From positions 160,146,001 to 160,210,000 of the forward strand of contig OZ360219.1 of the NCBI GenBank assembly GCA_977017645.1: a stretch of 64,000 nt of DNA. The letters are read 5' to 3'. A program made the position numbers and the translations under genes. The notes below the pieces were generated by a model. The model had not been told where the DNA came from. It made no database searches and was given only the letters and a program-made list of their open reading frames with translations. Positions 15,163 to 58,500 of this stretch are shown here, piece after piece (within the stretch, counting starts at the first letter, position 1; every line of letters begins with the position of its first letter). This DNA is from Torpedo marmorata (lineage: Eukaryota).

Positions 15163-18100
15163 ATGGCTGATTCTAGAAGTATAAATTTTGTAAGTATTAA
15201 TGTTAATGGGCTTAATAATCCAATTAAGAGGAAAAAAACTTTAGCACATATCAAAAAATTAAAAGTAGATATAGCTTTTTTACAGGAAACACATTTGATT
15301 GATAAAGAACATCAAAAATTAAAGAGAGAATGGGTAGGACATGTAGTAGCTTCATCTTTTAATTCTAAAGCGAGAGGAGTAGCGATTTTAATCAGTAAAA
15401 AATTACCATTTAAAATACAATCAGTAGTGACGGATATAGCTGGTAGATATGTTTTAGTGCATTGTCAAATTTATTCAGAAATATGGACTCTTTTAAATTT
15501 ATATATTACAAACCCAGAGGATGAACAATTTATTCAAGATACTTTTTTACATTTATCTGAGGCTAAGGAAAATATTTTAATTGGAGGAGATTTTAATTGT
15601 TGTCTTAATGCAAATATGGATAAAACATCTAGAACATCTGTTAGACCTAAGATAGTTAAAAAAATTATTAATTTAATGGATGATTTAAAATTAGTAGATA
15701 TTTGGAGAAAGTTAAACCCTAGAGAAAAAGATTATTCATTTTATTCATTTCGACATAATTCATTCTCAAGGATTGATTTATTCTTAATATCTTCACAAAT
15801 TCAAGATAGAATAACTCAAATTTCTTATAAAGCAAGAATAATTTCGGACCATTCACCTTTATTAATGACATGTATAATTCCAGAGAAAGAAAAAACTGTA
15901 TATAACTGGAGATTAGACTCTTCTTTATTAAATAGAAAAGATTTTTGTGAATATATAAGAAAAGAAATTCAGGAATTTTTAAGAATTAATAATAATTCAG
16001 TTGAAGATAAGTTTATAATTTGGGAATCTTTAAAAGCATATTTAAGAGGATTGATAATAAGCTTCTCGGCAAAAATTAGAAAAGATTATGTGAAAGAAGA
16101 AGAAAAACTGGAGGGAGAAATTGAAGTTATGGAAAAGGATTTTCAAAGAAATAAAACAATTTCTAAGAGACAATGTTTAATTGGGAAAAAATTACATTAT
16201 AATATATTACAAACTCGAAAAATAGAAAAATTAATTGGTAGAACAAAGCAAAGATATTATGAATTGGGAGAAAGAGCACATAAAGTTTTAGCATGGCAAT
16301 TAAAGAAAGAACAAGTTTCTAAAACTATAAATGCTATAAAGAAAAGTTCTGGAGAAATAACTTATAAACCTCAAGAAATAAATAATTCATTTAAAGAGTA
16401 TTATCAAAATTTATATACTTCGCAAATGAATCAAGATGTTGTAAAAATTGATGATTTTTTAGCTAAAATTACATTGCCCAAATTAAATAGTTTTAATAGA
16501 GATTCATTAGATTTACCAATTACAATGAGAGAAGTAGGTGAAGCTTTATCATCATTGAATAGTGGTAAATCTCCCGGTGATGATGGATTTCCGGCAGAGT
16601 TTTATAAGAAGTTTAAAGATGTATTGATACCTATATATATGGAAGTATTAACTCAAATAAAGGAAACTCATTCATTACCGAAAACATTTTTAAATGCTAT
16701 TATCACAGTTATACCAAAGAAAGATAGAGATGTATTAAAAACAGAATCGTATAGGCCTATATCATTGTTAAATGTAGATTATAAATTAATGGCAAAAATC
16801 TTGACAAATAGACTAGCTAAGTTTTTACCATCTTTAATACATCCAGATCAAGCAGGATTTATTAAAAATAGATATTCAAAGGATAATATAGCAAGATTAA
16901 TAAGTTTAATTAATTTACAAAAAAAGAAACAGGATTTGCCGTTAGTGATAGCATTAGATGCAGAAAAAGCATTTGATAGAGTAGAATGGAAGTTTTTATT
17001 TAAAGTTTTAGAGAAATATGGATTTGGAAATACGTTTATAAACTGGATTAAGACTATATATAAGGAACCTACAGCTAGAGTAATTACAAATGGTCAAATA
17101 TCATCTAAATTCTCTTTGACGCGGTCAACAAGACAAGGATGTCCATTGTCACCTGCCTTATTTGTATTGGCAATAGAACCGTTGGCGGAAATGATTAGGA
17201 AAGATATCAATATAAATGGGATAAAAGTAGGTGTAGAAGAGCATAAAATTAGTTTGTTTGCAGATGATGTATTAATATATATGACAAAATCTATTGAATC
17301 ACTTCAACAATTAGATAAAATATTGAGGGATTATGGTGAAATATCTGGATATAAAATTAATTCGGATAAAAGTGAGATAATGGCTTTATCTCAAGGAGAT
17401 TATACTAAATGTAAAGAAGTTACAAAATTTAAATGGACTAAAGAAGCTATTAAATATTTGGGAGTTAAAGTGGATACAAAGTTAGAAAATTTATATAAAT
17501 TAAATTACATACCTTTATTTCAGAAAATAAAGAAGGATTTGGATAATTGGAAAGATTTACCCATAACTTTAATGGGAAGAGTGAATTGTATTAAAATGAA
17601 TATTTTTCCAAAAGTTCAATATCTTTTTCAATCTATACCTTTTGGTATTCCTCAAAAAATTTTTAAAGATTTAAAAATTATTATTAGAAAGTTTTTATGG
17701 AAAGGTAAATTGGCAAGAGTAAGTATGGATAAATTAACTTGGGAATACGAAATGGGAGGATTACAACTCCCTAATTTTCAATATTATTATAAGGCAGCAC
17801 AATTAAAATTTATAAATGAATTATTTGATTTAACTAAAAATACGGCTTGGATTAATATAGAATTGAGTAATATAGGAGAAAGAAATAAGGAAGATATTAT
17901 TTATAAATGGAATTCTAAATTATTATTGATTAAAAAGAAAAAGTCACCGATTATTAAACATCTATTGGAAATTTGGAATCAATTAGATAATGAAATAGGA
18001 CGAAAAGGATCAATTTCTTTAAATATGCCATTATATCAGAATTTATTATTACCATTTTCTATTGATAATCAATTTTTAAAATTATGGTATCAAAAAGGAA

Positions 18101-18948
18101 TTAAGAAGATTAAAGATTGTTTTGAGGCAGGAAGATTTGTTACTTTTTCTAGATTGAAAGAAAAATTTGGAATAATGGATAATACAGTTTTGGCTTATTA
18201 TCAAGTTAAAGGATTTTTAGTTGAGAAATTAGGGAATCAATTAATATCCCCTAGACAAGATGGGTTAGAGTTATTAATTACTAATGGAAATGTTAACAAA
18301 TTTATATCGCAAATGTATAAATTACTTCAGAAAAAAATGTTTAAAGTAGGACTACATAAATCTAGATTAAATTGGGAATCAGATCTAAACACTAGTATAG
18401 ATGAACAACACTGGAAAGAATTATGTAAACTGAGTATGACTAAGATTATTAATGTTAGATATAGATTAGTACAATATAATTTTTTTCATCAATTATATAT
18501 AACACCTAAAAAATTAAAGAAATTCAATTCGGCATTGTCAGATATGTGTTTTAGATGTAAAGATGAAATAGGTTCTTTTGTACATTGTACATGGTTGTGT
18601 TTGAAAATTAAAAATTTTTGGTCTAAAGTTAAGGAATTTTTAGATAGAATTCTTAATATTACGATTCCAATGGACCCTATGATATTTCTGTTTGGAGATA
18701 TTAAAAAAATCAGTATTAGAAATAGATTGAATATGTACCAAATAGAATTTTTACGAATTGTGTTAGCAATTTCAAAAAAATGTATTGCTATTACTTGGAA
18801 ATCAGATTTAGATTTAAATTTGGATAGATTACATGCAGAGTTACGCTCGTGTATACCATTGGAAAAAGTTACGTATAATTTACGAGACAAATATCATTTC
18901 TTTCTGAAAATTTGGAGCCCATACATGAGAATTATGGGTATGAATTAA
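15163..18948 (+). CDS. L1 ORF2p (APE endonuclease, reverse transcriptase, Cys-rich domain), uninterrupted 1261 aa
   Basis: INVNGLN, LQETH, GGDFN, SRIDL, SDHSP; YRPISLLNVDYK, QGCPLSP, LFADD; CFRC...HCTWLC. Confidence 0.95.
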   Translation: MADSRSINFVSINVNGLNNPIKRKKTLAHIKKLKVDIAFLQETHLIDKEHQKLKREWVGHVVASSFNSKARGVAILISKKLPFKIQSVVTDIAGRYVLVHCQIYSEIWTLLNLYITNPEDEQFIQDTFLHLSEAKENILIGGDFNCCLNANMDKTSRTSVRPKIVKKIINLMDDLKLVDIWRKLNPREKDYSFYSFRHNSFSRIDLFLISSQIQDRITQISYKARIISDHSPLLMTCIIPEKEKTVYNWRLDSSLLNRKDFCEYIRKEIQEFLRINNNSVEDKFIIWESLKAYLRGLIISFSAKIRKDYVKEEEKLEGEIEVMEKDFQRNKTISKRQCLIGKKLHYNILQTRKIEKLIGRTKQRYYELGERAHKVLAWQLKKEQVSKTINAIKKSSGEITYKPQEINNSFKEYYQNLYTSQMNQDVVKIDDFLAKITLPKLNSFNRDSLDLPITMREVGEALSSLNSGKSPGDDGFPAEFYKKFKDVLIPIYMEVLTQIKETHSLPKTFLNAIITVIPKKDRDVLKTESYRPISLLNVDYKLMAKILTNRLAKFLPSLIHPDQAGFIKNRYSKDNIARLISLINLQKKKQDLPLVIALDAEKAFDRVEWKFLFKVLEKYGFGNTFINWIKTIYKEPTARVITNGQISSKFSLTRSTRQGCPLSPALFVLAIEPLAEMIRKDININGIKVGVEEHKISLFADDVLIYMTKSIESLQQLDKILRDYGEISGYKINSDKSEIMALSQGDYTKCKEVTKFKWTKEAIKYLGVKVDTKLENLYKLNYIPLFQKIKKDLDNWKDLPITLMGRVNCIKMNIFPKVQYLFQSIPFGIPQKIFKDLKIIIRKFLWKGKLARVSMDKLTWEYEMGGLQLPNFQYYYKAAQLKFINELFDLTKNTAWINIELSNIGERNKEDIIYKWNSKLLLIKKKKSPIIKHLLEIWNQLDNEIGRKGSISLNMPLYQNLLLPFSIDNQFLKLWYQKGIKKIKDCFEAGRFVTFSRLKEKFGIMDNTVLAYYQVKGFLVEKLGNQLISPRQDGLELLITNGNVNKFISQMYKLLQKKMFKVGLHKSRLNWESDLNTSIDEQHWKELCKLSMTKIINVRYRLVQYNFFHQLYITPKKLKKFNSALSDMCFRCKDEIGSFVHCTWLCLKIKNFWSKVKEFLDRILNITIPMDPMIFLFGDIKKISIRNRLNMYQIEFLRIVLAISKKCIAITWKSDLDLNLDRLHAELRSCIPLEKVTYNLRDKYHFFLKIWSPYMRIMGMN

Positions 18949-19075
18949 TTCTCTAGAAGTTAGTACCGCTGACAAAGTAACCTCCAATATATAAGTAGAG
19001 TTAGCTTGAAATAGTTTTTCTCCTCATACTAACACTAATTTTCTTTCTTAACTTTATTATTCAACCTTTTTCTTT

Positions 19076-19757
19076 TGTAAGAGCCGTAGGCTCATTGACT
19101 TACCGTTGTTGCGGCGCTCCGATGTCTCGTTGGGCCTTGGAGCGCTCGCGTAGTTCGGTAGGCCGTCCTCGGAGCGCTCCTAGGCCACGTCGGGCCATTG
19201 AGCGCTCGCGTTGTTCACTGGGCCGTCCTCTGAGCGCTCCGAGGCCACGTCGGGCCTTGGAGCGCTTGCGTTGTTCTGTGGGCCGTCGTCGGCCCGTTCT
19301 TTGATATGCGCATGCGCGGGAGTGCCGACGGGCGCATGCGCAGTATAGAGTGACGTCATAGTGCGCGTGGGAGGCTGGGAATTGTAGTATGCGCGTTGGA
19401 GCATGCGCAGAAGCATTGGAGAGAGAGAACAAAGAAAGGATAGAGATGTATAGGGGGTGAGTCTGGTCTCCACATCTTTATTGACCGTTTTATACCGTTT
19501 TATAACTTTTAACATCATCTACAGTGTTTCATATCGTTTTGGAATTGTTTAAAGAATAATTTAAAGGAACTTATCATACATCGTTTACAAGAACTGTTTA
19601 TATTAAAGTCATTGAAGATTACTGCAAGACATGTGTGAAAATAAAGGTTTTTGAACATATTGGACTTTGTCAGTAAATTAAATAAAACGCGTCAAAAGCA
19701 AGAACCACACTTAGCCTCCAGGTGACTATTGGTGGAGCGAAGTCACCGTTACTTATA
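19076..19757 (+). repeat. 5' LTR of BEL copy 1 (TGTAAG...CTTATA)
   Basis: Identical by eye to 24577-25258; the spurious ORFs translated from both LTRs are identical. Confidence 0.92.
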
Positions 19758-20203
19758 GTCAATAAAGGGCTGGCTGTTTGGAACAGAAGTTTGAAAGAAA
19801 GAAGATAGAAAAAACTCTCTGTGCTTTGGACTGATATAAATTGGTGGCCATTTTGGAGATGCATCGAGTTGGGGGCAGTTTGTAATCTACATCCATCTGC
19901 CATGAATAACAGCCAGAGAGTGATTTAAAGCTTCAAATCTTATAGAAAAGTGTCCTATAAATACGTTGGAGAAACTATTTTTGGAAAATCAGTGATATTA
20001 GTGACGGATGTTGTGGTTGAAACTCGTTTGTGGATTGCAGCACATTACAGTCATTTGAAGTGGTAGGCATAAGTCTGTGGACTCCTTCTGTGTATCTTTA
20101 GCAAGTAAGAACACAGATTGGAATTGCTGCCGCTGGTCCATTGGGGACTGTTGTTTGACTAGTGTTGTGTATGCTTGAAGGAAAGAGGAACAAGACGAGT
20201 AAA

Positions 20204-23200
20204 ATGGCCGCAGCAGCCACTGATACAGCAGCTACTGATTTATCAGCAGCTGACGCAGCAACCGCTGATGTTGCTGTTGAGGACCAACGTATTGAAGACA
20301 TGAAGGTTGCGGATATTAAAGAAGAATTGAAGCGACTGAATAAGGACATAAGTGGAAATAAAAAGGTTCTTATTGAAAGATTGAAGCTGGCAAAGGATGA
20401 AGAGGCAGCTTCATTAGTTGAACAAGAAGATAACTTGGAAATGGCTGAAATTGTGTCAACAAATGATGAACAATTTGAATTGGATAAAGAGGTAAGTATG
20501 AAGACAACATATGAACTGCAGGACGAAATACAAGCAAGTGACAGTGTCTCAAATGCTGAAAGCAGGAGAAGCAAAAGAAGTTCTGGTTCAAGCTCCAGAG
20601 TTTCTCGTACTTCAAGTTCTGCATCGTCACGTACAAAGGTTGATGTTAAATTGGCCGCTCTTCTTGCACAACAAAAAACGCTTAAGGATAAATTTATATT
20701 AGAACAAGAGGAGGAGCAGCTAAGACAAAATGAGGAGCAGCTAAAGGAGCAGCTAAGACAAAATGAGAAGCAGCTAAAGGAGCAGCTAAGACAAAAGGAG
20801 GAGCAGCTAAGACGAAAGGAGGAGCAGTTAAAGGAGCAGCTAAAGGAGCAGCTAAGACAAAAGGAGGAGCAGCTAAGACGAAAGGAGGAGCAGTTAAAGG
20901 AGCAGCTAAAGGAGCAGCTAAGACAAGAGGAGGAGCAGCTAAGACAAAATGAGGAGCAGCTAAAGGAGCAGCTAAGACAAAATGAGAAGCAGCTAAAGGA
21001 GCAGCTAAGACAAGAGAAGGAGCAGCTAAAGCAGAGAAAAGAACTGCAGGAGCTGGAAGCAAACATTGCTATTGCCAAGGCAGAAAAGAAAGCAATAGAA
21101 GGTTCAATGGTATCTGGTGTTAGCAGTAAATCATCTAAATTGTCTGATGATAAAAGGTCATATTTAAAAAAGGAGTCACAGGAAAAGAAACCAACCAAAA
21201 GGATAGATATTTTAGAACCAAGGATACAAAACTTACATATACAAAGACAAACCTTTCAAGAGCATATTGGTATCGAGTCACATGTACCAATAATAACATC
21301 TGAAAGCAAAGCTGCGGATTGGGTACGGTCGAACGAAGCAGCTTCTTTGTTATATGAGCCAAGCATCAGAAATATGGAAGAAACTACACCAGTAAGGTTT
21401 CCAGATACATTGCATACAACAAGAGACAGTGAACAGAGTAATGTATTGAAATCCAAGGAAAGACAAAATGAAATTGCTGCGTCATTGTTTCAGTTACAGT
21501 CTCTCTCTTCTTTACCCAAGAAAGAGATACAAACTTTTGATGGTGATCCACTTCAATATCAATCATTTATGAGATCTTTCAAACGCAATATTGAAGATAA
21601 ATGCCAAGATCGTGATGAATGTCTTTATTATTTGGAAATGTTTACAAAGGGACATCCAAAGGAACTGGTTAAAAGTTGTAATCAAATGTCTTCAGGAAGA
21701 GGATTAGATAAAGCTAAGGATTTATTGGAACAATATTTTGGCAACAAACATCGAATTGCTTTAGCTTATATGGATAAAGCTCTTAAATGGACATCAATAA
21801 AACAAAATGATGTAAAGGCTTTGCAAGAATATACTTTGTTTTTAAGAGGATGTTGTAATGCTATGGAAGAAATTGATAATATTCGTGAACTTGAAGTGCA
21901 TAGTAATATGAGAATCATCTTAGAAAAATTACCTTACAAGTTATGGGATAGATGGAGAGATTTGGCTTGTAATTTACAAGTAGATTACGGTCGAAAAACT
22001 ACCTTAAAGGATTTAGTAAATTTTCTTGAACGACGGGTGTACGTTGAAACAGATCCACTATATGGAAATGCCAGAGATAATTCAATGGGCAAAGATGTAA
22101 TGAAGTCTAACACACAGTCTAGTCCGAAAGTGAAAAGGAGTACATTTGCTACTAATGTGCAAGTTATAAGTAAAGAAAATGACAAAGTAAATAAGGAAAA
22201 GGAAAGTTTGCCTAGTGAAAAGAGTTGTTTGTTCTGTAAAGGTGGACATGCTTTGGAAATGTGTTTACAATTGGAAAAGAAGGAACATAAGGAAAAGATC
22301 GCTTTCTTAAAGGAAAATGGAATATGTTTTAGCTGTCTGTGTAAAGGGCACATCAGTAAAAACTGCGAGAAGCGAATTAATTGTAAAATATGCAATTTGA
22401 AACATCCTAGAATTTTGCATATCCATAACAGAAACAAGGAATTGGAAAAGGAGCAAACAGAAACAAAGGAAACAACAGAAAATAATGTTATAACCTCGGT
22501 TCAGACAAGTGGTCTTACTGGGGCCGGGGTGAATAACTGCAAACTTTCAATAGTGCCTGTACAAGTTAAGGCCAAGAAAGGAGATGCAATAGTAAAAACA
22601 TATGCATTTCTAGACCCAGGTAGCACTGCATCTTTTTGCACGGAAGGACTAATGAATAAACTTAATATTCAAGGAAGAAAATCAAGAATTATGTTAAAAA
22701 CCATGGGACAAGAAAAGGTTGTTGAAACTAACATTGTTTCAGGCTTAGAGGTTGCTGGATTGGATGACAAAAAATTTTGTGATCTTCCAAGTGTATATAC
22801 TCAGAAGACTATGCCTGTGAACGAAGGAAATATTCCTCATCAAAGTGATATCCATCATTTAGCTTATCTGTGGAAGGTTTATTTACCTGAAATTAATTCT
22901 GAAATAGAAATGCTGATTGGTTCAGATGTGCCAAAGGTTTTGGTACCAAAAGAAGTAATAGAAAGTAAAAGGAATGGACCTTACGCTATTAGAACCATAC
23001 TTGGTTGGGCAATCAATGGACCAATGGAAAGAAATAATGATATTGCTCAGGAACAGGTAGCGATAAATGTTAATAAAATTTCAGTTGAGAAATTTGAAGA
23101 GTTAAAAGAAGAGCAAAAAACCGTGAATAAGAAAATCATTTATGAAGAAAAGAAAACAGATCAATGTGAAAATAAATCAGTGGTATTTAAAACAACATTG

Positions 23201-24160
23201 AAGAAATTAATTTCGTCAGAAATGGATGAAAGTGAAGTATTAGAAGATGTTGCAAATAATACTGTTGATCATTCATGTGTAATTGAATCAAATACAGGAA
23301 TAAAACAAGTGACTGAAAACAAATCTGAATGTAGATTTTGTAGTTCAGAGATTACAACAGACAAAGCTAATGAAGAAATATTACAATGTGATGTAAAACT
23401 GGAAAACACAGAAAATTGTGCTGATGAAATAAAGAATAATGATTCAGAGAACAAAATGTTGAAAGGAGAATTGGAAATATTAAATAAGCAAGAAAACAGT
23501 AAACAGAAAGATTTAATTGTAAGTAAAACTCGCAAAGTTAGAAAGCGGAAGAAAAGAATAACTGCTGAAGAAATGAATACAGTTATTGAGGAAAGAGATT
23601 CAGCATTATCAAAATGTAAAAGGTTGGAGGAAGAGATTAATGTTTTGAAAGAGATCAAGTTATTGGTTAATAACACAAAACAGTTGACTTTTAAAACCAA
23701 TCAAGAATGTAAATTGAATGTTCAACAATTAACAATGCAGAAAGAATGTGAAATTGCATTGCAGAAATGTAACAAGCAAGACGAAGAAATTAAAAAATTT
23801 CAAGTATGCCGCAACAGGATTGACAATGGAACTATCAATGTATCGCATGATATTTTGACTTCAGATCAAATTATTAATTTCTCGGAAGGAGCTGAGACTG
23901 AATTGAAAGTTGCGAAATTGGATTTAGAATTGCAGGAAAGAGCAATAGAAACCAGAGTGGTTAAACAAACCTGTTTAAAATCGAAAGAATCAGATAAATA
24001 TTCAAATTCTAATTCTAAGAGTTTAAATTCTTCACATGAGAAGTGGAGTACTGAAGAAAGGAAAAAAGTGAAACGACGTGCTGAAGAAGTGCCTTGTGTT
24101 AAATTCAAAAGAAAAACTGTATCTATTTTGTCTGAGGAGGATTTGAGGTTTACTGGTTGA
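20204..24160 (+). CDS. Chimeric Gag-protease polyprotein: SAP domain, coiled-coil repeats, Pao-type capsid, three Zn knuckles, aspartic protease, MIPOL1-like coiled-coil tail
   Basis: Open frame 20162-24160; probable start aaaATGG at 20204 (upstream ATG at 20171). MKVADIKEELKR...SGNKKVLIERL (SAP); FDGDPLQY (Gag); CLFC..H..C, CFSC..H..C, CKIC..H...H; FLDPGS (protease); RITAEEM..IEERD.ALSKCKRLE (MIPOL1-like). No YxDD RT motif. Confidence 0.85.
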   Translation: MAAAATDTAATDLSAADAATADVAVEDQRIEDMKVADIKEELKRLNKDISGNKKVLIERLKLAKDEEAASLVEQEDNLEMAEIVSTNDEQFELDKEVSMKTTYELQDEIQASDSVSNAESRRSKRSSGSSSRVSRTSSSASSRTKVDVKLAALLAQQKTLKDKFILEQEEEQLRQNEEQLKEQLRQNEKQLKEQLRQKEEQLRRKEEQLKEQLKEQLRQKEEQLRRKEEQLKEQLKEQLRQEEEQLRQNEEQLKEQLRQNEKQLKEQLRQEKEQLKQRKELQELEANIAIAKAEKKAIEGSMVSGVSSKSSKLSDDKRSYLKKESQEKKPTKRIDILEPRIQNLHIQRQTFQEHIGIESHVPIITSESKAADWVRSNEAASLLYEPSIRNMEETTPVRFPDTLHTTRDSEQSNVLKSKERQNEIAASLFQLQSLSSLPKKEIQTFDGDPLQYQSFMRSFKRNIEDKCQDRDECLYYLEMFTKGHPKELVKSCNQMSSGRGLDKAKDLLEQYFGNKHRIALAYMDKALKWTSIKQNDVKALQEYTLFLRGCCNAMEEIDNIRELEVHSNMRIILEKLPYKLWDRWRDLACNLQVDYGRKTTLKDLVNFLERRVYVETDPLYGNARDNSMGKDVMKSNTQSSPKVKRSTFATNVQVISKENDKVNKEKESLPSEKSCLFCKGGHALEMCLQLEKKEHKEKIAFLKENGICFSCLCKGHISKNCEKRINCKICNLKHPRILHIHNRNKELEKEQTETKETTENNVITSVQTSGLTGAGVNNCKLSIVPVQVKAKKGDAIVKTYAFLDPGSTASFCTEGLMNKLNIQGRKSRIMLKTMGQEKVVETNIVSGLEVAGLDDKKFCDLPSVYTQKTMPVNEGNIPHQSDIHHLAYLWKVYLPEINSEIEMLIGSDVPKVLVPKEVIESKRNGPYAIRTILGWAINGPMERNNDIAQEQVAINVNKISVEKFEELKEEQKTVNKKIIYEEKKTDQCENKSVVFKTTLKKLISSEMDESEVLEDVANNTVDHSCVIESNTGIKQVTENKSECRFCSSEITTDKANEEILQCDVKLENTENCADEIKNNDSENKMLKGELEILNKQENSKQKDLIVSKTRKVRKRKKRITAEEMNTVIEERDSALSKCKRLEEEINVLKEIKLLVNNTKQLTFKTNQECKLNVQQLTMQKECEIALQKCNKQDEEIKKFQVCRNRIDNGTINVSHDILTSDQIINFSEGAETELKVAKLDLELQERAIETRVVKQTCLKSKESDKYSNSNSKSLNSSHEKWSTEERKKVKRRAEEVPCVKFKRKTVSILSEEDLRFTG

Positions 24161-24186
24161 CGTTTGACTCGGATTGTGAAGATAAA

Positions 24187-24379
24187 AGAACTTTAAAGAG
24201 ACATTGTGATTGTTATGGATGGTTCAACTTCAAGAAATTCCTGGTTACTTGGAAAAGATTATTGAGACTTTTCAAGACAAAGAGGACTTGTGCGTCAAGT
24301 GCGAATTAAAGCTAAGACTGGTTTTCTAAGCAGACCTATTAACCAGGTCTGCCTTTTGTTGGAGACAGAGGAACTTTGA
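24187..24379 (+). pseudogene. Remnant of the BEL integrase C-terminal domain (DUF5641-like)
   Basis: DIVIVMDGSTSRNSWLLG.IIETFQDK.GLVRQVRIKAKTGFLSRPINQVCLLLE, with frameshifts, after the ORF stop. Confidence 0.75.
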
Positions 24380-24576
24380 TAAATGTAAACTGACTTTATT
24401 TGTTGTTGTACATTTCACAGGTTACAGACTTTTGTTGAATCAGAGTTATGGTAAACTCTAGATTTATGAAGAAGGAAGAAAGAAGATTTGTATTGTTTTG
24501 AATGTTATGGTTATTATTATTTATAGTGTAATTATTATTCAAGACATTACGTCTAATTATAATAATTAGGGGCCGG

Positions 24577-25258
24577 TGTAAGAGCCGTAGGCTCATTGAC
24601 TTACCGTTGTTGCGGCGCTCCGATGTCTCGTTGGGCCTTGGAGCGCTCGCGTAGTTCGGTAGGCCGTCCTCGGAGCGCTCCTAGGCCACGTCGGGCCATT
24701 GAGCGCTCGCGTTGTTCACTGGGCCGTCCTCTGAGCGCTCCGAGGCCACGTCGGGCCTTGGAGCGCTTGCGTTGTTCTGTGGGCCGTCGTCGGCCCGTTC
24801 TTTGATATGCGCATGCGCGGGAGTGCCGACGGGCGCATGCGCAGTATAGAGTGACGTCATAGTGCGCGTGGGAGGCTGGGAATTGTAGTATGCGCGTTGG
24901 AGCATGCGCAGAAGCATTGGAGAGAGAGAACAAAGAAAGGATAGAGATGTATAGGGGGTGAGTCTGGTCTCCACATCTTTATTGACCGTTTTATACCGTT
25001 TTATAACTTTTAACATCATCTACAGTGTTTCATATCGTTTTGGAATTGTTTAAAGAATAATTTAAAGGAACTTATCATACATCGTTTACAAGAACTGTTT
25101 ATATTAAAGTCATTGAAGATTACTGCAAGACATGTGTGAAAATAAAGGTTTTTGAACATATTGGACTTTGTCAGTAAATTAAATAAAACGCGTCAAAAGC
25201 AAGAACCACACTTAGCCTCCAGGTGACTATTGGTGGAGCGAAGTCACCGTTACTTATA
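24577..25258 (+). repeat. 3' LTR of BEL copy 1
   Basis: Direct repeat of 19076-19757 (offset 5501), followed by TSD TCTTT. Confidence 0.92.
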
Positions 25259-25704
25259 TCTTTCCTTTTAATTAACATTTTTATACTCTATTTTCTTTTT
25301 TTATTAGATAGCGTGGGAGGGTTGGGGAGGGGAGGGTGGGAAGGGGGGGTAGTAAATATATCACATGTATTTTCAATAATATATTATTTTTTTGATATAT
25401 GTATTTTGTGATTTTAAAAATTAAATAAAATTATAAAAAAAAAAAAAACAAAAAAAAAAAACCACTGTATTCTATCACATCTTACAAATATAAATTAGTT
25501 CATAACCAAAAAACTGTGAGCTCAGGGGTTTGTTGCAACTTACCTTCATTCACTTTACAAGTCACTCAGCTATATGACAATCTTCAAATATATCATCATT
25601 TCGCACATACTTTTTAATCATATGCTTGCCTTTCATAAATCACTGTTGAGGCATCTCTAGTCTTGAGTCTCTGTTGGGCACGGTCAGCAAAAAAATACTT
25701 TGTA

Positions 25705-54012: not shown

Positions 54013-55501
54013 TTGGCGTCTCCAATCAATCAAGTTGAAAATTATGAGGTTGGCTTATTTTCTGCACTTTTTCTTGACTGAATCAATGTCATGGAGAAAC
54101 TGAGCGCACATTCTCCCCACTCAACTGCAGTCTTTTTAGTTTGTATGAAAACCATTTGCATTAATTGAAGATTAAGACAATTTATATGCTGCAAGTAGAA
54201 TGATTTGAACTCACTCACTATCATACTTTGAGACTTATAACTAAATGAATAGAATTACAGATCATTTCCCATTTCCTTCATTTATTACATTAAAATAAAG
54301 TTACAAGAAATTGTGAATGTTGCAACAGAACATGATTTTTTTTTTTTAAATTTTAGACATACAGCACGGTAACAGGCCCTTCCAGCCCCCGAGCCCATGC
54401 CGCTCAAAAACATCAATTAACCTACAACCATACGTTTTTGAAAGGTGGGAAGAAACCGAAGCACCCGGAGGAAACCCATGTAGGTCATGGGGTGTGTAAG
54501 AGCCGTAGGCTCATTAACTTACCGTTGTTGCGGCGCTCCGATGTCTTGTCGGGTTGTGGAGCGCTTGCGTTGTTATGTAGGCCGTCCTCGGCCCGTTCTG
54601 TGCTCTGCGCATGCGCTGGAGTGCCGACGGGCGCATGCGCAGTGTGGAGTGACGTCATTGTGCGCGGTGTAGTTTGGGAAATGTAGTATGCGCGGTGGGG
54701 GGTGCGCAGTGATATAGGAGCGACGGGGCATGCGCGAATTAGAGAATAGGAGAAGGAATAAGATGTAGGAGGGTGAGTGAGATCTCCATATCTTTATTGA
54801 CCGTTTTATATCGTTTTATAACGTCTTATACATCGTTTTGGAATTGTTTAAGGAATCATTTAAAGAAACTCATCATACATCGTTTTCAAGAACTGTTTAT
54901 ATTGAAGTCATTGAAGATTACTGCAAGTCACGTGTGTAAATAAAGATTTTGAACATATTGGACTTTGTTGGTAAATTAATTAAAACGCGTCAAAGACAAG
55001 TATCTCACTTAGCCTCCAGGTGACTATTGTTGGATCGAAGTCACCATATTATAGTCAATAAAGTGCTGGCTGTTTGGAACAGAAAATTGAAGGAAAGAAG
55101 ATAGAATAATCTCTCTGTGCTTTGGACTGATATTTAAAATGGCGGCCATCTTGGAGATGCCTCGAGTTGAGGGCAGTTTGTAATCCACATCCATCTGCCA
55201 TGAATAACAGCCAGAGAGGGATTTAAAGTTTCAAATCTTATAGAAAAGTGTCCTATAAATACGTTGGAGAAACTATTTTTGGAAAATTAGTGATATTATT
55301 GACGGATGTTGTGGTTGAAACTCGTTTGTGGATTGCAGCACATTACAGTCATTTGAAGTGGTAGGCATAAGTCTGTGGACTCCTTCTGTGTATCTTTAGC
55401 AAGTAAGAACACAGATTGGAATTGCTGCCGCTGGTCCATTGGGGACTGTTGTTTGGCAAGTGTTGTGTATGCTTGAAGGAAAGAGGAACAAGACGAGTAA
55501 A

Positions 55502-58500
55502 ATGGCCGCAGCAGCCTCTGATACAGCAGCTACTGAGGTATCAGCAGCTGACGCAGCAACCGTTGATGTTGCTGTTGAGGACCAATGTATTGAAGACATG
55601 AAGGTTTCGGATATTAAAGAAGAATTGAAGCGACTGAAAAAGGATATAAGTGGAAATAAAAAGGTTCTTATCGAAAGATTGAAGCAGGCAAAGGATGAAG
55701 AGGCAGCTTCATTAAATGAACAAGAAGATAACTTGGAAATGGCAGAAATTGTGTCACCAAATGATGAAGAAATTGAAGTGGTTGAAAATGCAAAGGATAT
55801 ACAATTTGAATTGGATAAAGAGGTAAGTATGAAGACAGCATATGAACTGCAGGACGAAATACAAGCAAGTGACAGTGTCTCAAATGCTGTAAGCAGGAGA
55901 AGCAAAAGAAGTTCTGGTTCAAGCTCCAGAGTTTCTCGTACTTCAAGTTCTGCATCGTCACGTACAAAGGTTGATATTAAATTGGCCGCTCTTCTTGCAC
56001 AACAAAAAACGCTTAAGGATAAATTTATTTTAGAACAAGAGGAGGAGCAGCTGAGACAAAATGAGAAGCAGCTAAAGGAGCAGCTAAGACAAAATGAGAA
56101 GCAGCTAAAGGAGCAGCTAAGACAAAAGGAGGAGCAGCTAAAGGAGCAGCTAAGACAAGAGAAGGAGCAGCTAAGGCAGAGAAAAGAACAGCAGGAGCTG
56201 GAAGCAAACATTGCTATTGCCAAGGCAGAAAAGAAAGCAATAAAAGGCTCAATGGTATCTGGTGCTAGAAGTAAATTATCTAAATTGTCTGATAATAAAA
56301 GGTCATATTTAAAAAAGGTGTCACAGGAAAAGAAACCAACCAAAAGGATAGATATTTTAGAACCAAGGATACAAAACTTACATATACAAGGACAAACCTT
56401 TCAAGAGCATATTGGTATCGAGTCACATGTACCAATGGTGACATCTGAAAGTAAAGCTGCGGCTTGGGTTCGGTCGAACGAAGCAGCTTCTTTGTTATAT
56501 GAGTCAAGCATCAGAAATATGGAAGAAACTACACCAGTGAGGTTTCCAGATACATTGCATGCAAGAAGAGACGGTGAACAGAGCAATGTATTGTCATCCA
56601 AGGAAAGACAAAATGAAACTGCTGCATCATTGTTTCAGTTACAGTCTCTCTCTTCTTTACCCAAGAAAGAGATACAAACTTTTGATGGTGATCCACTTCA
56701 ATATCAATCATTTATGAGATATTTCAAACGCAATTTTGAAGATAAATGTCAAGATCGTGATGAATGTCTTTATTATTTGGAAATGTTCACAAAGGGACAT
56801 CCAAAAGAATTGGTAAAGAGTTGTAAACAAATGTCTTCAAAAAGAGGATTAGACAAAGCTAAGGCTTTATTGGAACAATATTTTGGCAACAAGCATCGAA
56901 TTGCTTTAGCTTATATGGATAAAGCTCTTAAATGGACATCAATAAAACAAAATGATGTAAAGGCTCTGCAAGAATATACTTTGTTTTTAAGAGGATGTTG
57001 TAATGCTATGGAAGAAATCGATAATATTCGTGAGCTTGAAGTGCATAGTAATATGCGAATCATCTTAGAAAAATTACCTTACAAGTTATGGGATAGATGG
57101 AGAGATTTGGCTTGTGATTTACAAGTAGATTACGGTCGAAAAATTACCTTAAAGGATTTGGTAAATTTTCTTGAACGACGGGTGTACGTTGAAACAGATC
57201 CACTATATGGAAATGCCAGAGATAATTCAATGGGCAAAGATGTAAGGAAGTCTAACACACAGTCTAGTCCGAAAGTGAAAAGGAGTACTTTTGCTACTAA
57301 TGTGCAAGTTATAAGTAAAGAAAAGGACAAAGTAAATAAGGAAAAGGAAAGTTTGCCTAATGAAAAGAGTTGTTTGTTCTGTAAAGGTGGACATGCTTTG
57401 GAAATGTGTTTACGATTGGAAAAGAAGGATCATAAGGAAAAGATCGCTTTCTTAAAGGAAAATGGAATATGTTTTAGCTGTCTGTGTAAAGGACACATCA
57501 GTAAAAACTGCGAGAAGCGAATTAATTGTAACATATGCAATTTGAAACATCCTAGAATTTTGCATATCCATAACAGAAACAAGGAATTGGAAAAGGAGCA
57601 AACAGAAACAAAGGAAACAACAGAAAATAATGTTATAACCTCGGTTCAGACAAGTGGTCTTACTGGGGCCGGTGTGGATAACTGCAAACTTTCAATAGTG
57701 CCTGTACAAGTCAAGGCCAAGAAAGGGGATGTAATAGTAAAAACATATGCATTTTTAGACCCAGGCAGCACTGCATCTTTTTGCACGGAGGGACTAATGA
57801 ATAAACTTAATATTCAAGGAAGAAGATCAAGAATTATGTTAAAAACCATGGGACAAGAAAGGGTTGTTGAAACTAACATTGTTTCAGGCTTAGAGGTTGG
57901 TGGATTATATGACAAAAAATTTTGTGATCTTCCAAGTGTATATACTCAGAAGACTATGCCTGTGAATGAAGGAAATATTCCTCATCAAAGGGATATCCAT
58001 CATTTAGCTTATCTGTGGAAGGTTTATTTACCTGAAATTAATTCTGAGATAGAAATGCTGATTGGTTCAGATGTGCCAAAGGTTTTGGTACCAAAAGAAG
58101 TAATAGAGAGTAAAAGGAATGGACCTTATGCTGTTAAAACCATGCTTGGTTGGACAATCAATGGACCACTGGAAAGAAATAATGATATTGCTCAGGAACA
58201 GTCAGCGATAAATATTAATAGAATTTCAGTTGTGAAAGTTGAAGAGTTAAGCGAAGAGCAAAATACTGTGAATAAGAAAATCACTTTTGAGGAAAAGAAA
58301 ACTGATCAATGTGAAAATAAATCAAAGGTATTTAAAACAACATTGAAGGAATTATTTTCATCAAAAATGGATGAAAGTGAGGTATTAGAAGATGTTGCAA
58401 ATAATACTATTGATCATTCATGTGTAATTGAATCAAATACAGGAATAAAACAAGTGACTGAAAACAAATCTGAATGTAGATTTTGTAGTTCAGAGATTAC

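Follow-up and report, generated by a model that had tools for sequence, protein, structure and literature searches.

A SAP domain of evident host SLTM origin at the start of a BEL/Pao Gag protein in Torpedo marmorata

The element and its N-terminal SAP domain

The window, that is, the whole 64,000-nucleotide stretch of Torpedo marmorata DNA analyzed here, contains an open reading frame in which a retrotransposon Gag is preceded by a segment resembling a DNA-binding SAP module. Is this segment a SAP domain, was it taken from a host gene, and what could it do for the element? The window holds two copies of one non-autonomous LTR element (element 1 and element 2), with the following features.

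15163-18948, L1-like ORF (the L1 label is a reading of its translation)
19076-25258, + strand, element 1, whole, from LTR to LTR
left 19071..19075 and right 25259-25263, + strand, 5-bp target-site duplication of element 1
19076..19757, + strand, 5′ LTR of element 1, with TG...TA ends; no mismatch to the 3′ LTR in 681 compared bases
24577..25258, + strand, 3′ LTR of element 1
20177..20203, + strand, remnant of the SLTM 5′UTR, placed by aligning host exon 1 with both window copies and 7 older ones; left edge approximate
20204..20389, + strand, coding part of SLTM exon 1, from the start codon through the Ala-rich stretch to the SAP domain; 115 of the 176 bases aligned with host exon 1 are identical
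20291..20389, + strand, SAP domain of element 1, 33 codons; PF02037 match of 38.7 bits
20390..20405, + strand, first 16 nt of SLTM exon 2, following exon 1 with the intron absent; 13 of 16 identical in the window copy
20406..20520, + strand, acidic linker including the DNLE..VST motif; near-neutral evolution; likeness to SLTM at most marginal
20204..24160, + strand, single ORF of element 1: SAP, Ser-rich and coiled stretch, Gag core, Cys/His knuckle, aspartic protease, non-Pol tail
21473..23090, + strand, BEL/Pao Gag core with knuckle and protease; identity to an autonomous copy 91-95%; ends approximate
23480..23860, + strand, MIPOL1-like part of the tail; best Atlas match MIPOL1 with a score of 0.96, under the tool's recognition threshold
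55589..55687, + strand, SAP domain of element 2
54495-55053, + strand, 5′ LTR of element 2, whose ORF runs from 55502 and whose 3′ LTR runs from 59749

Element 1 is inserted at the 3′ end of an L1-like element. The L1-like ORF listed above, an ORF2 of 1261 aa, looks intact, and further L1-like fragments are scattered through the window. The ORF of element 1 encodes no reverse transcriptase (RT), RNase H or integrase; everything after the protease is missing from the window copies, which are non-autonomous derivatives. LTRs usually end in TG...CA; those of the young elements end in TG...TA, but the insertions show clean 5-bp duplications. Rfam returned no match within 19000-25400. The coiled stretch of Gag differs from copy to copy by a QLRQ/EEQLK tandem repeat of variable length (window 20700-21040; 12, 21 and 33-nt steps).

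The original prediction of an N-terminal SAP module, in an ORF whose translation from the ATG at 20204 agrees with the one given, was borne out by the Pfam scan: the PF02037 match (curated cut-off 23.9 bits) has an E-value of 7.4e-10 in element 1, at residues 30-61 (20291-20386), and scores 39.2 bits in copy 2, whose translation reads ERLKQAKDEE as was noted. AlphaFold modelled the SAP region with two main helices (pLDDT 87), and the top PDB matches of this model in Foldseek were SAP-domain structures (1zrj, probability 0.99, rmsd 0.5 Å), none of them at E<0.001 at a length of 44 residues. As modelled, the window SAP would adopt the two-helix SAP fold. A leucine that is otherwise nearly invariant, at position 22 of alignment A2, is missing from the young subfamily. 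This subfamily also has an in-frame ATG at 20171, located 33 nt 5′ of the SLTM-derived start, which could add 11 residues, partly from former SLTM 5′UTR.

Donor gene and age of the capture

When the SAP region was compared with a 90%-cluster protein database, the single match was an unrelated multi-SAP protein, and a search of 1.84 billion representative proteins gave 53 matches, consisting of multi-SAP proteins and many SLTM/SAFB N-termini. Searching the genome with SLTM/SAFB queries uncovered older copies of the element, in which 28-32 of the 33 SAP residues are identical to host SLTM. The host SLTM gene was located through its RRM exon; protein searches were swamped by element copies. This gene (G000:C68) matches proteins named SLTM; a GT donor closes its exon 1, exons 2-4 are bounded by AG/GT, and the RRM exon lies 28 kb downstream on the same strand. 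A candidate for host SLTM found by its splice-donor pattern was just a mutated element copy. The host SAFB exons are 78-87% identical to a whale-shark protein, and two SAFB-type loci (L083 and L090, G000:C54) lie on one contig, on the same strand and at a distance of ~1 Mb from each other.

All of the 24 element loci tested, which were picked by the SLTM/SAFB queries and include two duplicates, matched SLTM exon 1 at 73-90% over up to ~190 nt, and none matched the SAFB loci at E<0.001. Identity of old copies to host exon 1 reached 163/182 and 169/188 bases, with 85-90% over 188 nt. The match covers 38 nt of the 5′UTR and ends there. At the other side, nucleotides 1-16 of exon 2 follow directly after exon 1, 14-16 of the 16 being identical in 19/19 older loci, and the 1,184-nt intron is gone. 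Because exon 1 runs into exon 2 without the intron, what was captured was a spliced SLTM mRNA. The similarity of the rest of exon 2 (21-27/63 identical, shuffle p 0.006-0.13) and of exon 3 (24-32/65, p 0.05-0.96) was marginal when compared with codon shuffles.

Comparison of the two possible donors gave the same answer at both the amino acid and the nucleotide level. The window SAP shares 21/33 aa and 68/99 nt with host SLTM versus 17/33 aa and 48/99 nt with host SAFB, and in five old copies the SAP shares 90-95/99 nt with SLTM versus 60-63/99 with SAFB. A tree of the SAP DNA (99 nt) placed host SLTM together with all element SAPs and apart from host SAFB (support 95). SAFB as donor is ruled out by these nucleotide counts, by the tree and by the lack of a blastn match to the SAFB loci, and the origin of the piece from host SLTM is almost certain. 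The capture of a SAFB/SLTM 5′ end, as originally proposed, thus holds at the DNA level, including the 5′UTR and the exon junction, and the alignment to host first exons and the SAP phylogeny suggested with it both name SLTM. A further argument, that the DN(L/I)E..VST motif beyond the domain points to SAFB/SLTM, did not survive: although present in the sequence, the motif is confined to the young subfamily, DNLE occurring in 12/65 loci, VST in 5/65 and neither in the 53 older ones (among the 65 are two pairs of entries for the same place). It is a late coincidence, which arose after a deletion in the linker of the young subfamily.

Relatives outside this genome were collected through the Gag-protease region, and the best 120 of the 253 obtained were taken (43-60% identity; the named ones are from teleosts). 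No precomputed SAP was found among these best 120 of 253, and 27 of 27 that were rescanned lacked the domain. The SAP profile matched 0/133 outside BEL proteins at E<0.9, and the 13 BEL fragments retrieved when shorter proteins were searched all lacked SAP. Neither a grouping of the element SAP with SAP domains of autonomous BEL/Gypsy Gag proteins from distant taxa nor a failure of the profile, the outcomes named beforehand as speaking against capture, occurred. In place of SAP, 100 of the 120 outside relatives have a helical N-domain, versus 0 of 48 element loci of this genome, and a motif ~115 residues in is common to the SAP-bearing Gags and those with the helical N-domain. This split of N-domains, together with the common motif, indicates that the SAP piece occupies the place of the ancestral first Gag domain. 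With one query, the genome yielded no match for the pre-capture N-domain. The helical N-domain of the teleost-type BEL Gag (P0056-P0175, residues ~5-120) has no Pfam family, and the Atlas gave no named family for it (best score 0.85).

Identity to SLTM exon 1 steps down through the family from 85-90% (88% near the base of the tree) to 76-83% and ~71%, and then to 59-68% in two derived lineages, one of which includes the window (~65%). In Gag-protease trees, built from 29 element rows and 9 outside proteins after 4 of 33 element rows with <250 columns had been dropped, all SAP copies formed one clade (0.96 with FastTree; 96.6 aLRT). The SLTM-like copies sit on short branches close to the base of this clade, with a branch order that is weakly supported (0.50; 63), and the two derived lineages are joined (0.97; 96.9). 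Judged from these trees and the identity ladder, the capture was a single old event at the base of the family. Within the element, the Ala-rich stretch grew by 36 nt. The 5′ capture junction carries a 7-nt near-repeat; a single query of the genome retrieved no pre-capture element for comparison.

The domain is spread widely. A SAP search of the 6.2-Gb genome gave 29,045 first-look candidates, and 150 of the 150 scored exceeded the cut-off. Among the best 30 SAP loci, labelled by reading their translations, 29 were N-termini of the same element family and 1 was an HNRNPU-like exon. Around the Pao Peptidase_A17 region, 11 of the 20 loci fetched, which were selected partly for long frames, contained open frames of 2018-2134 codons beginning with the same SAP N-terminus, and 3/3 autonomous relatives scanned carry SAP, RT, A17 and integrase domains. 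Since autonomous copies with intact frames share it, the SAP is not peculiar to a defective copy. The original prediction, which regarded the SAP as a piece captured by the element, stands as to capture; capture by the non-autonomous element itself is ruled out by the SAP in autonomous copies and by its origin at the base of the family. BEL/Pao hallmarks are the identical LTRs and 5-bp duplication of element 1, and a matching 5-mer in 6 of the 8 autonomous copies with both flanks. Within 10 kb, some loci (L094, L110, L042) contain a pair of SAP-element copies or duplicated Pol parts, among them a young copy beside or inside an old one.

Since the SAP is family-wide and present in intact autonomous copies, its capture is older than and separate from that of the MIPOL1-like tail, which is likely a separate, later capture; the MIPOL1 donor exon of the host was not located. 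The non-autonomous subfamily with this tail in place of Pol (23100-24160) is very young and of enormous size: the search gave 32,518 candidates, the 150 scored were all 100% identical over 107 aa, and most lay in open frames above 1200 codons. A sequencing run labelled as a second organism (X2) covers the whole young 5′ stretch (29/29 bins, at high depth and with variants), so the SAP family probably extends beyond this assembly. The small-share runs X4, X6 and X8, with just 1-6 low-depth contigs each, were left out.

Selection on the SAP domain and its possible roles

Between host SLTM and the window SAP, dN/dS was 0.21 (p 0.001), and 0.12 on 25 CpG-free codons. When 13 older copies were compared with one young copy, a reference shared by all 13 comparisons, the dN/dS of SAP was 0.19-0.68 (at most 0.48 in 12 of 13), that of the Gag core 0.24-0.51 and that of the linker 0.47-1.28, and the Cys/His knuckle was under stronger constraint (0.13-0.32). 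In the oldest comparisons, SAP dS was 1.4-1.9 versus 0.6-0.8 in Gag/RT, and SAP dN (0.26-0.36) was close to linker dN (0.34-0.36). The low dN/dS of these comparisons owes much to high dS, because a GC-rich host piece has drifted to the composition of the element. A less confounded contrast is offered by the two derived lineages (L103, L105, L106, L108), between which SAP dN was 0.37-0.46 versus 0.70-0.89 for the linker at similar dS, and element-to-element SAP tests reached p<0.05 in 4 of 8 cases. On these substitution patterns, the SAP is very probably under purifying selection at the protein level, like the capsid core.

A BEL/Pao element took the 5′ end of a spliced SLTM mRNA in place of its first Gag domain, and the SAP likely serves as a non-specific grip on DNA or chromatin; we consider this reading as a whole probable, and for the grip taken by itself, our confidence is tentative and lies slightly short of even. 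LTR elements capture mRNA via template switching (PMC5131818), and by this known mechanism the reverse transcriptase would have switched template onto a co-packaged SLTM mRNA and then back. Translation would start at SLTM's own start codon, and the SAP would anchor Gag itself, or the particle carrying the cDNA, to nuclear DNA. The SAP domain of SAFB1 is needed for chromatin binding (PMC5059712). It was originally suggested that the SAP might tether particles or nucleic acid to chromatin by way of AT-rich scaffold-attachment DNA. Insertion sites, which offer an indirect check, speak against such a preference and against AT-rich targeting at the 100-bp scale: 33 flanks of young insertions had a mean GC of 0.407 versus 0.408 for the host-gene background, a comparison made with no SAP-less control set.

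The lack of insertion-site bias also fits a role inside the particle, in which the SAP would be an extra nucleic-acid binder that helps to package RNA or handle cDNA, or else just a small folded cap in the place of the lost helical domain. The SAP is on Gag, not on integrase, and several of the SAP-fold matches lie in RNA-processing proteins. However, the Gag retains its more strongly constrained Cys/His knuckle, and the SAP of the SAFB family is described as DNA-binding (PMC10901741, PMC5059712), and this role is somewhat unlikely.

A bolder version of the chromatin hold is that the element took the DNA-binding end of a host repressor, SLTM, and uses it against repression or as a chromatin hold, the swap having launched the expansion to tens of thousands of copies; we regard it as doubtful. 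Counter-defence in the strict sense would have the SAP compete with SLTM/SAFB for chromatin or partners and so weaken the repression of A-rich retrotransposon RNA. A-rich purine RNA is a target of SAFB1, SAFB2 and SLTM, three proteins that suppress L1 and also LTR elements, the latter in mouse and fly (PMC10901741), the element ORFs are 35-40% A, and the very large size of the family agrees with it, as does the link of the putative SAP of a viral leader protein to nuclear retention and immune suppression (PMC4625562). This idea is nevertheless improbable: the DNA-binding end alone was taken, with no RRM; the SAP drifted to 21/33 identity with SLTM, where a mimic is expected to resist drift; and abundant, ubiquitous mRNAs are the likeliest captures anyway. 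As the donor family is reported to repress transposons, a counter-defence role becomes testable with the isolated domain.

It is more improbable still that the gain lay in the leader, with the SLTM 5′UTR and start context boosting translation and the SAP as a merely tolerated passenger. The start codon and the preceding dozen bases persist in nearly all aligned copies, and the closeness of SAP dN to linker dN in the oldest comparisons is as expected of a passenger, but in the derived lineages the SAP falls well below the linker, seven SAP core positions are invariant across 25/25 rows of alignment A2, and part of the SLTM 5′UTR is deleted in the window's lineage. Finally, an ancient SAP of BEL Gag, or one from another transposon, resembling SLTM by convergence, has practically no probability left: SAP domains are known in a Penelope-like element and in Zisupton (PMC8557442), and the window copy alone is just 65% identical to SLTM exon 1, but the DNA match to the host exon, up to 90% and including untranslated sequence, the exon 1-2 junction, the continuous intermediates and the absence of SAP from the 133 outside relatives, refutes it.

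Comparison with known systems

The gain of accessory domains by transposons is usually argued from distant protein likeness, whereas here the donor exon, the splice junction and the intermediates are in one genome, so that the origin of a new Gag domain and its subsequent refinement can be traced step by step. In retroviral oncogene capture, host-type sequence is likewise carried by a reverse-transcribing element, but the oncogene captures are mostly defective and short-lived. Chromoviruses also have a chromatin-binding module on a retrotransposon protein, but their chromodomains sit on integrase, and we know of no traceable donor exon for them.

With other BEL/Pao elements (PMC3118150) the present family has in common the LTRs, one gag-pol ORF, the order protease-RT-RNase H-integrase, the Pfam domains A17, DUF1759 and DUF5641 and the 5-bp target duplication; it differs in carrying SLTM sequence where 100 of the 120 closest outside relatives have the helical N-domain. 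With host SLTM it shares the end of the 5′UTR, the start codon, the Ala-rich stretch, the SAP and the first five codons of exon 2, whereas the RRM and the ER-rich tail are lacking in the element and its SAP has come down to 21/33 identity in the young subfamily. The word SAP is absent from the main text of the BEL/Pao survey (PMC3118150), and searches of the open-access literature showed no report of SAP/SLTM sequence in a BEL/Pao Gag.

Capture of mRNA by LTR elements (PMC5131818) and SAP domains in other transposons (PMC8557442) are known already. Zisupton and the Penelope-like Chlamys-1_pPol likewise encode transposon proteins with SAP; these belong to other transposon classes with other SAP positions, and the part of PMC8557442 that describes them leaves the donor gene unnamed, whereas the present donor exon belongs to the same genome as the element. 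What is notable in the present case is the traceable donor and its identity, the ladder of intermediates and the retention in autonomous copies. In LTR-mediated retroposition of host mRNA, which includes the Drosophila Pao element BATUMI (PMC5131818), part of a spliced mRNA inside an LTR element replaces part of the ORF, as here. Captured mRNA normally disables the element, and the chimeras described in that source act as non-autonomous elements; here, in contrast, the piece replaced a conserved Gag domain, is in frame with Gag, is constrained, is inherited family-wide among the copies sampled, is kept in autonomous copies, and stayed in intact, recently active ones.
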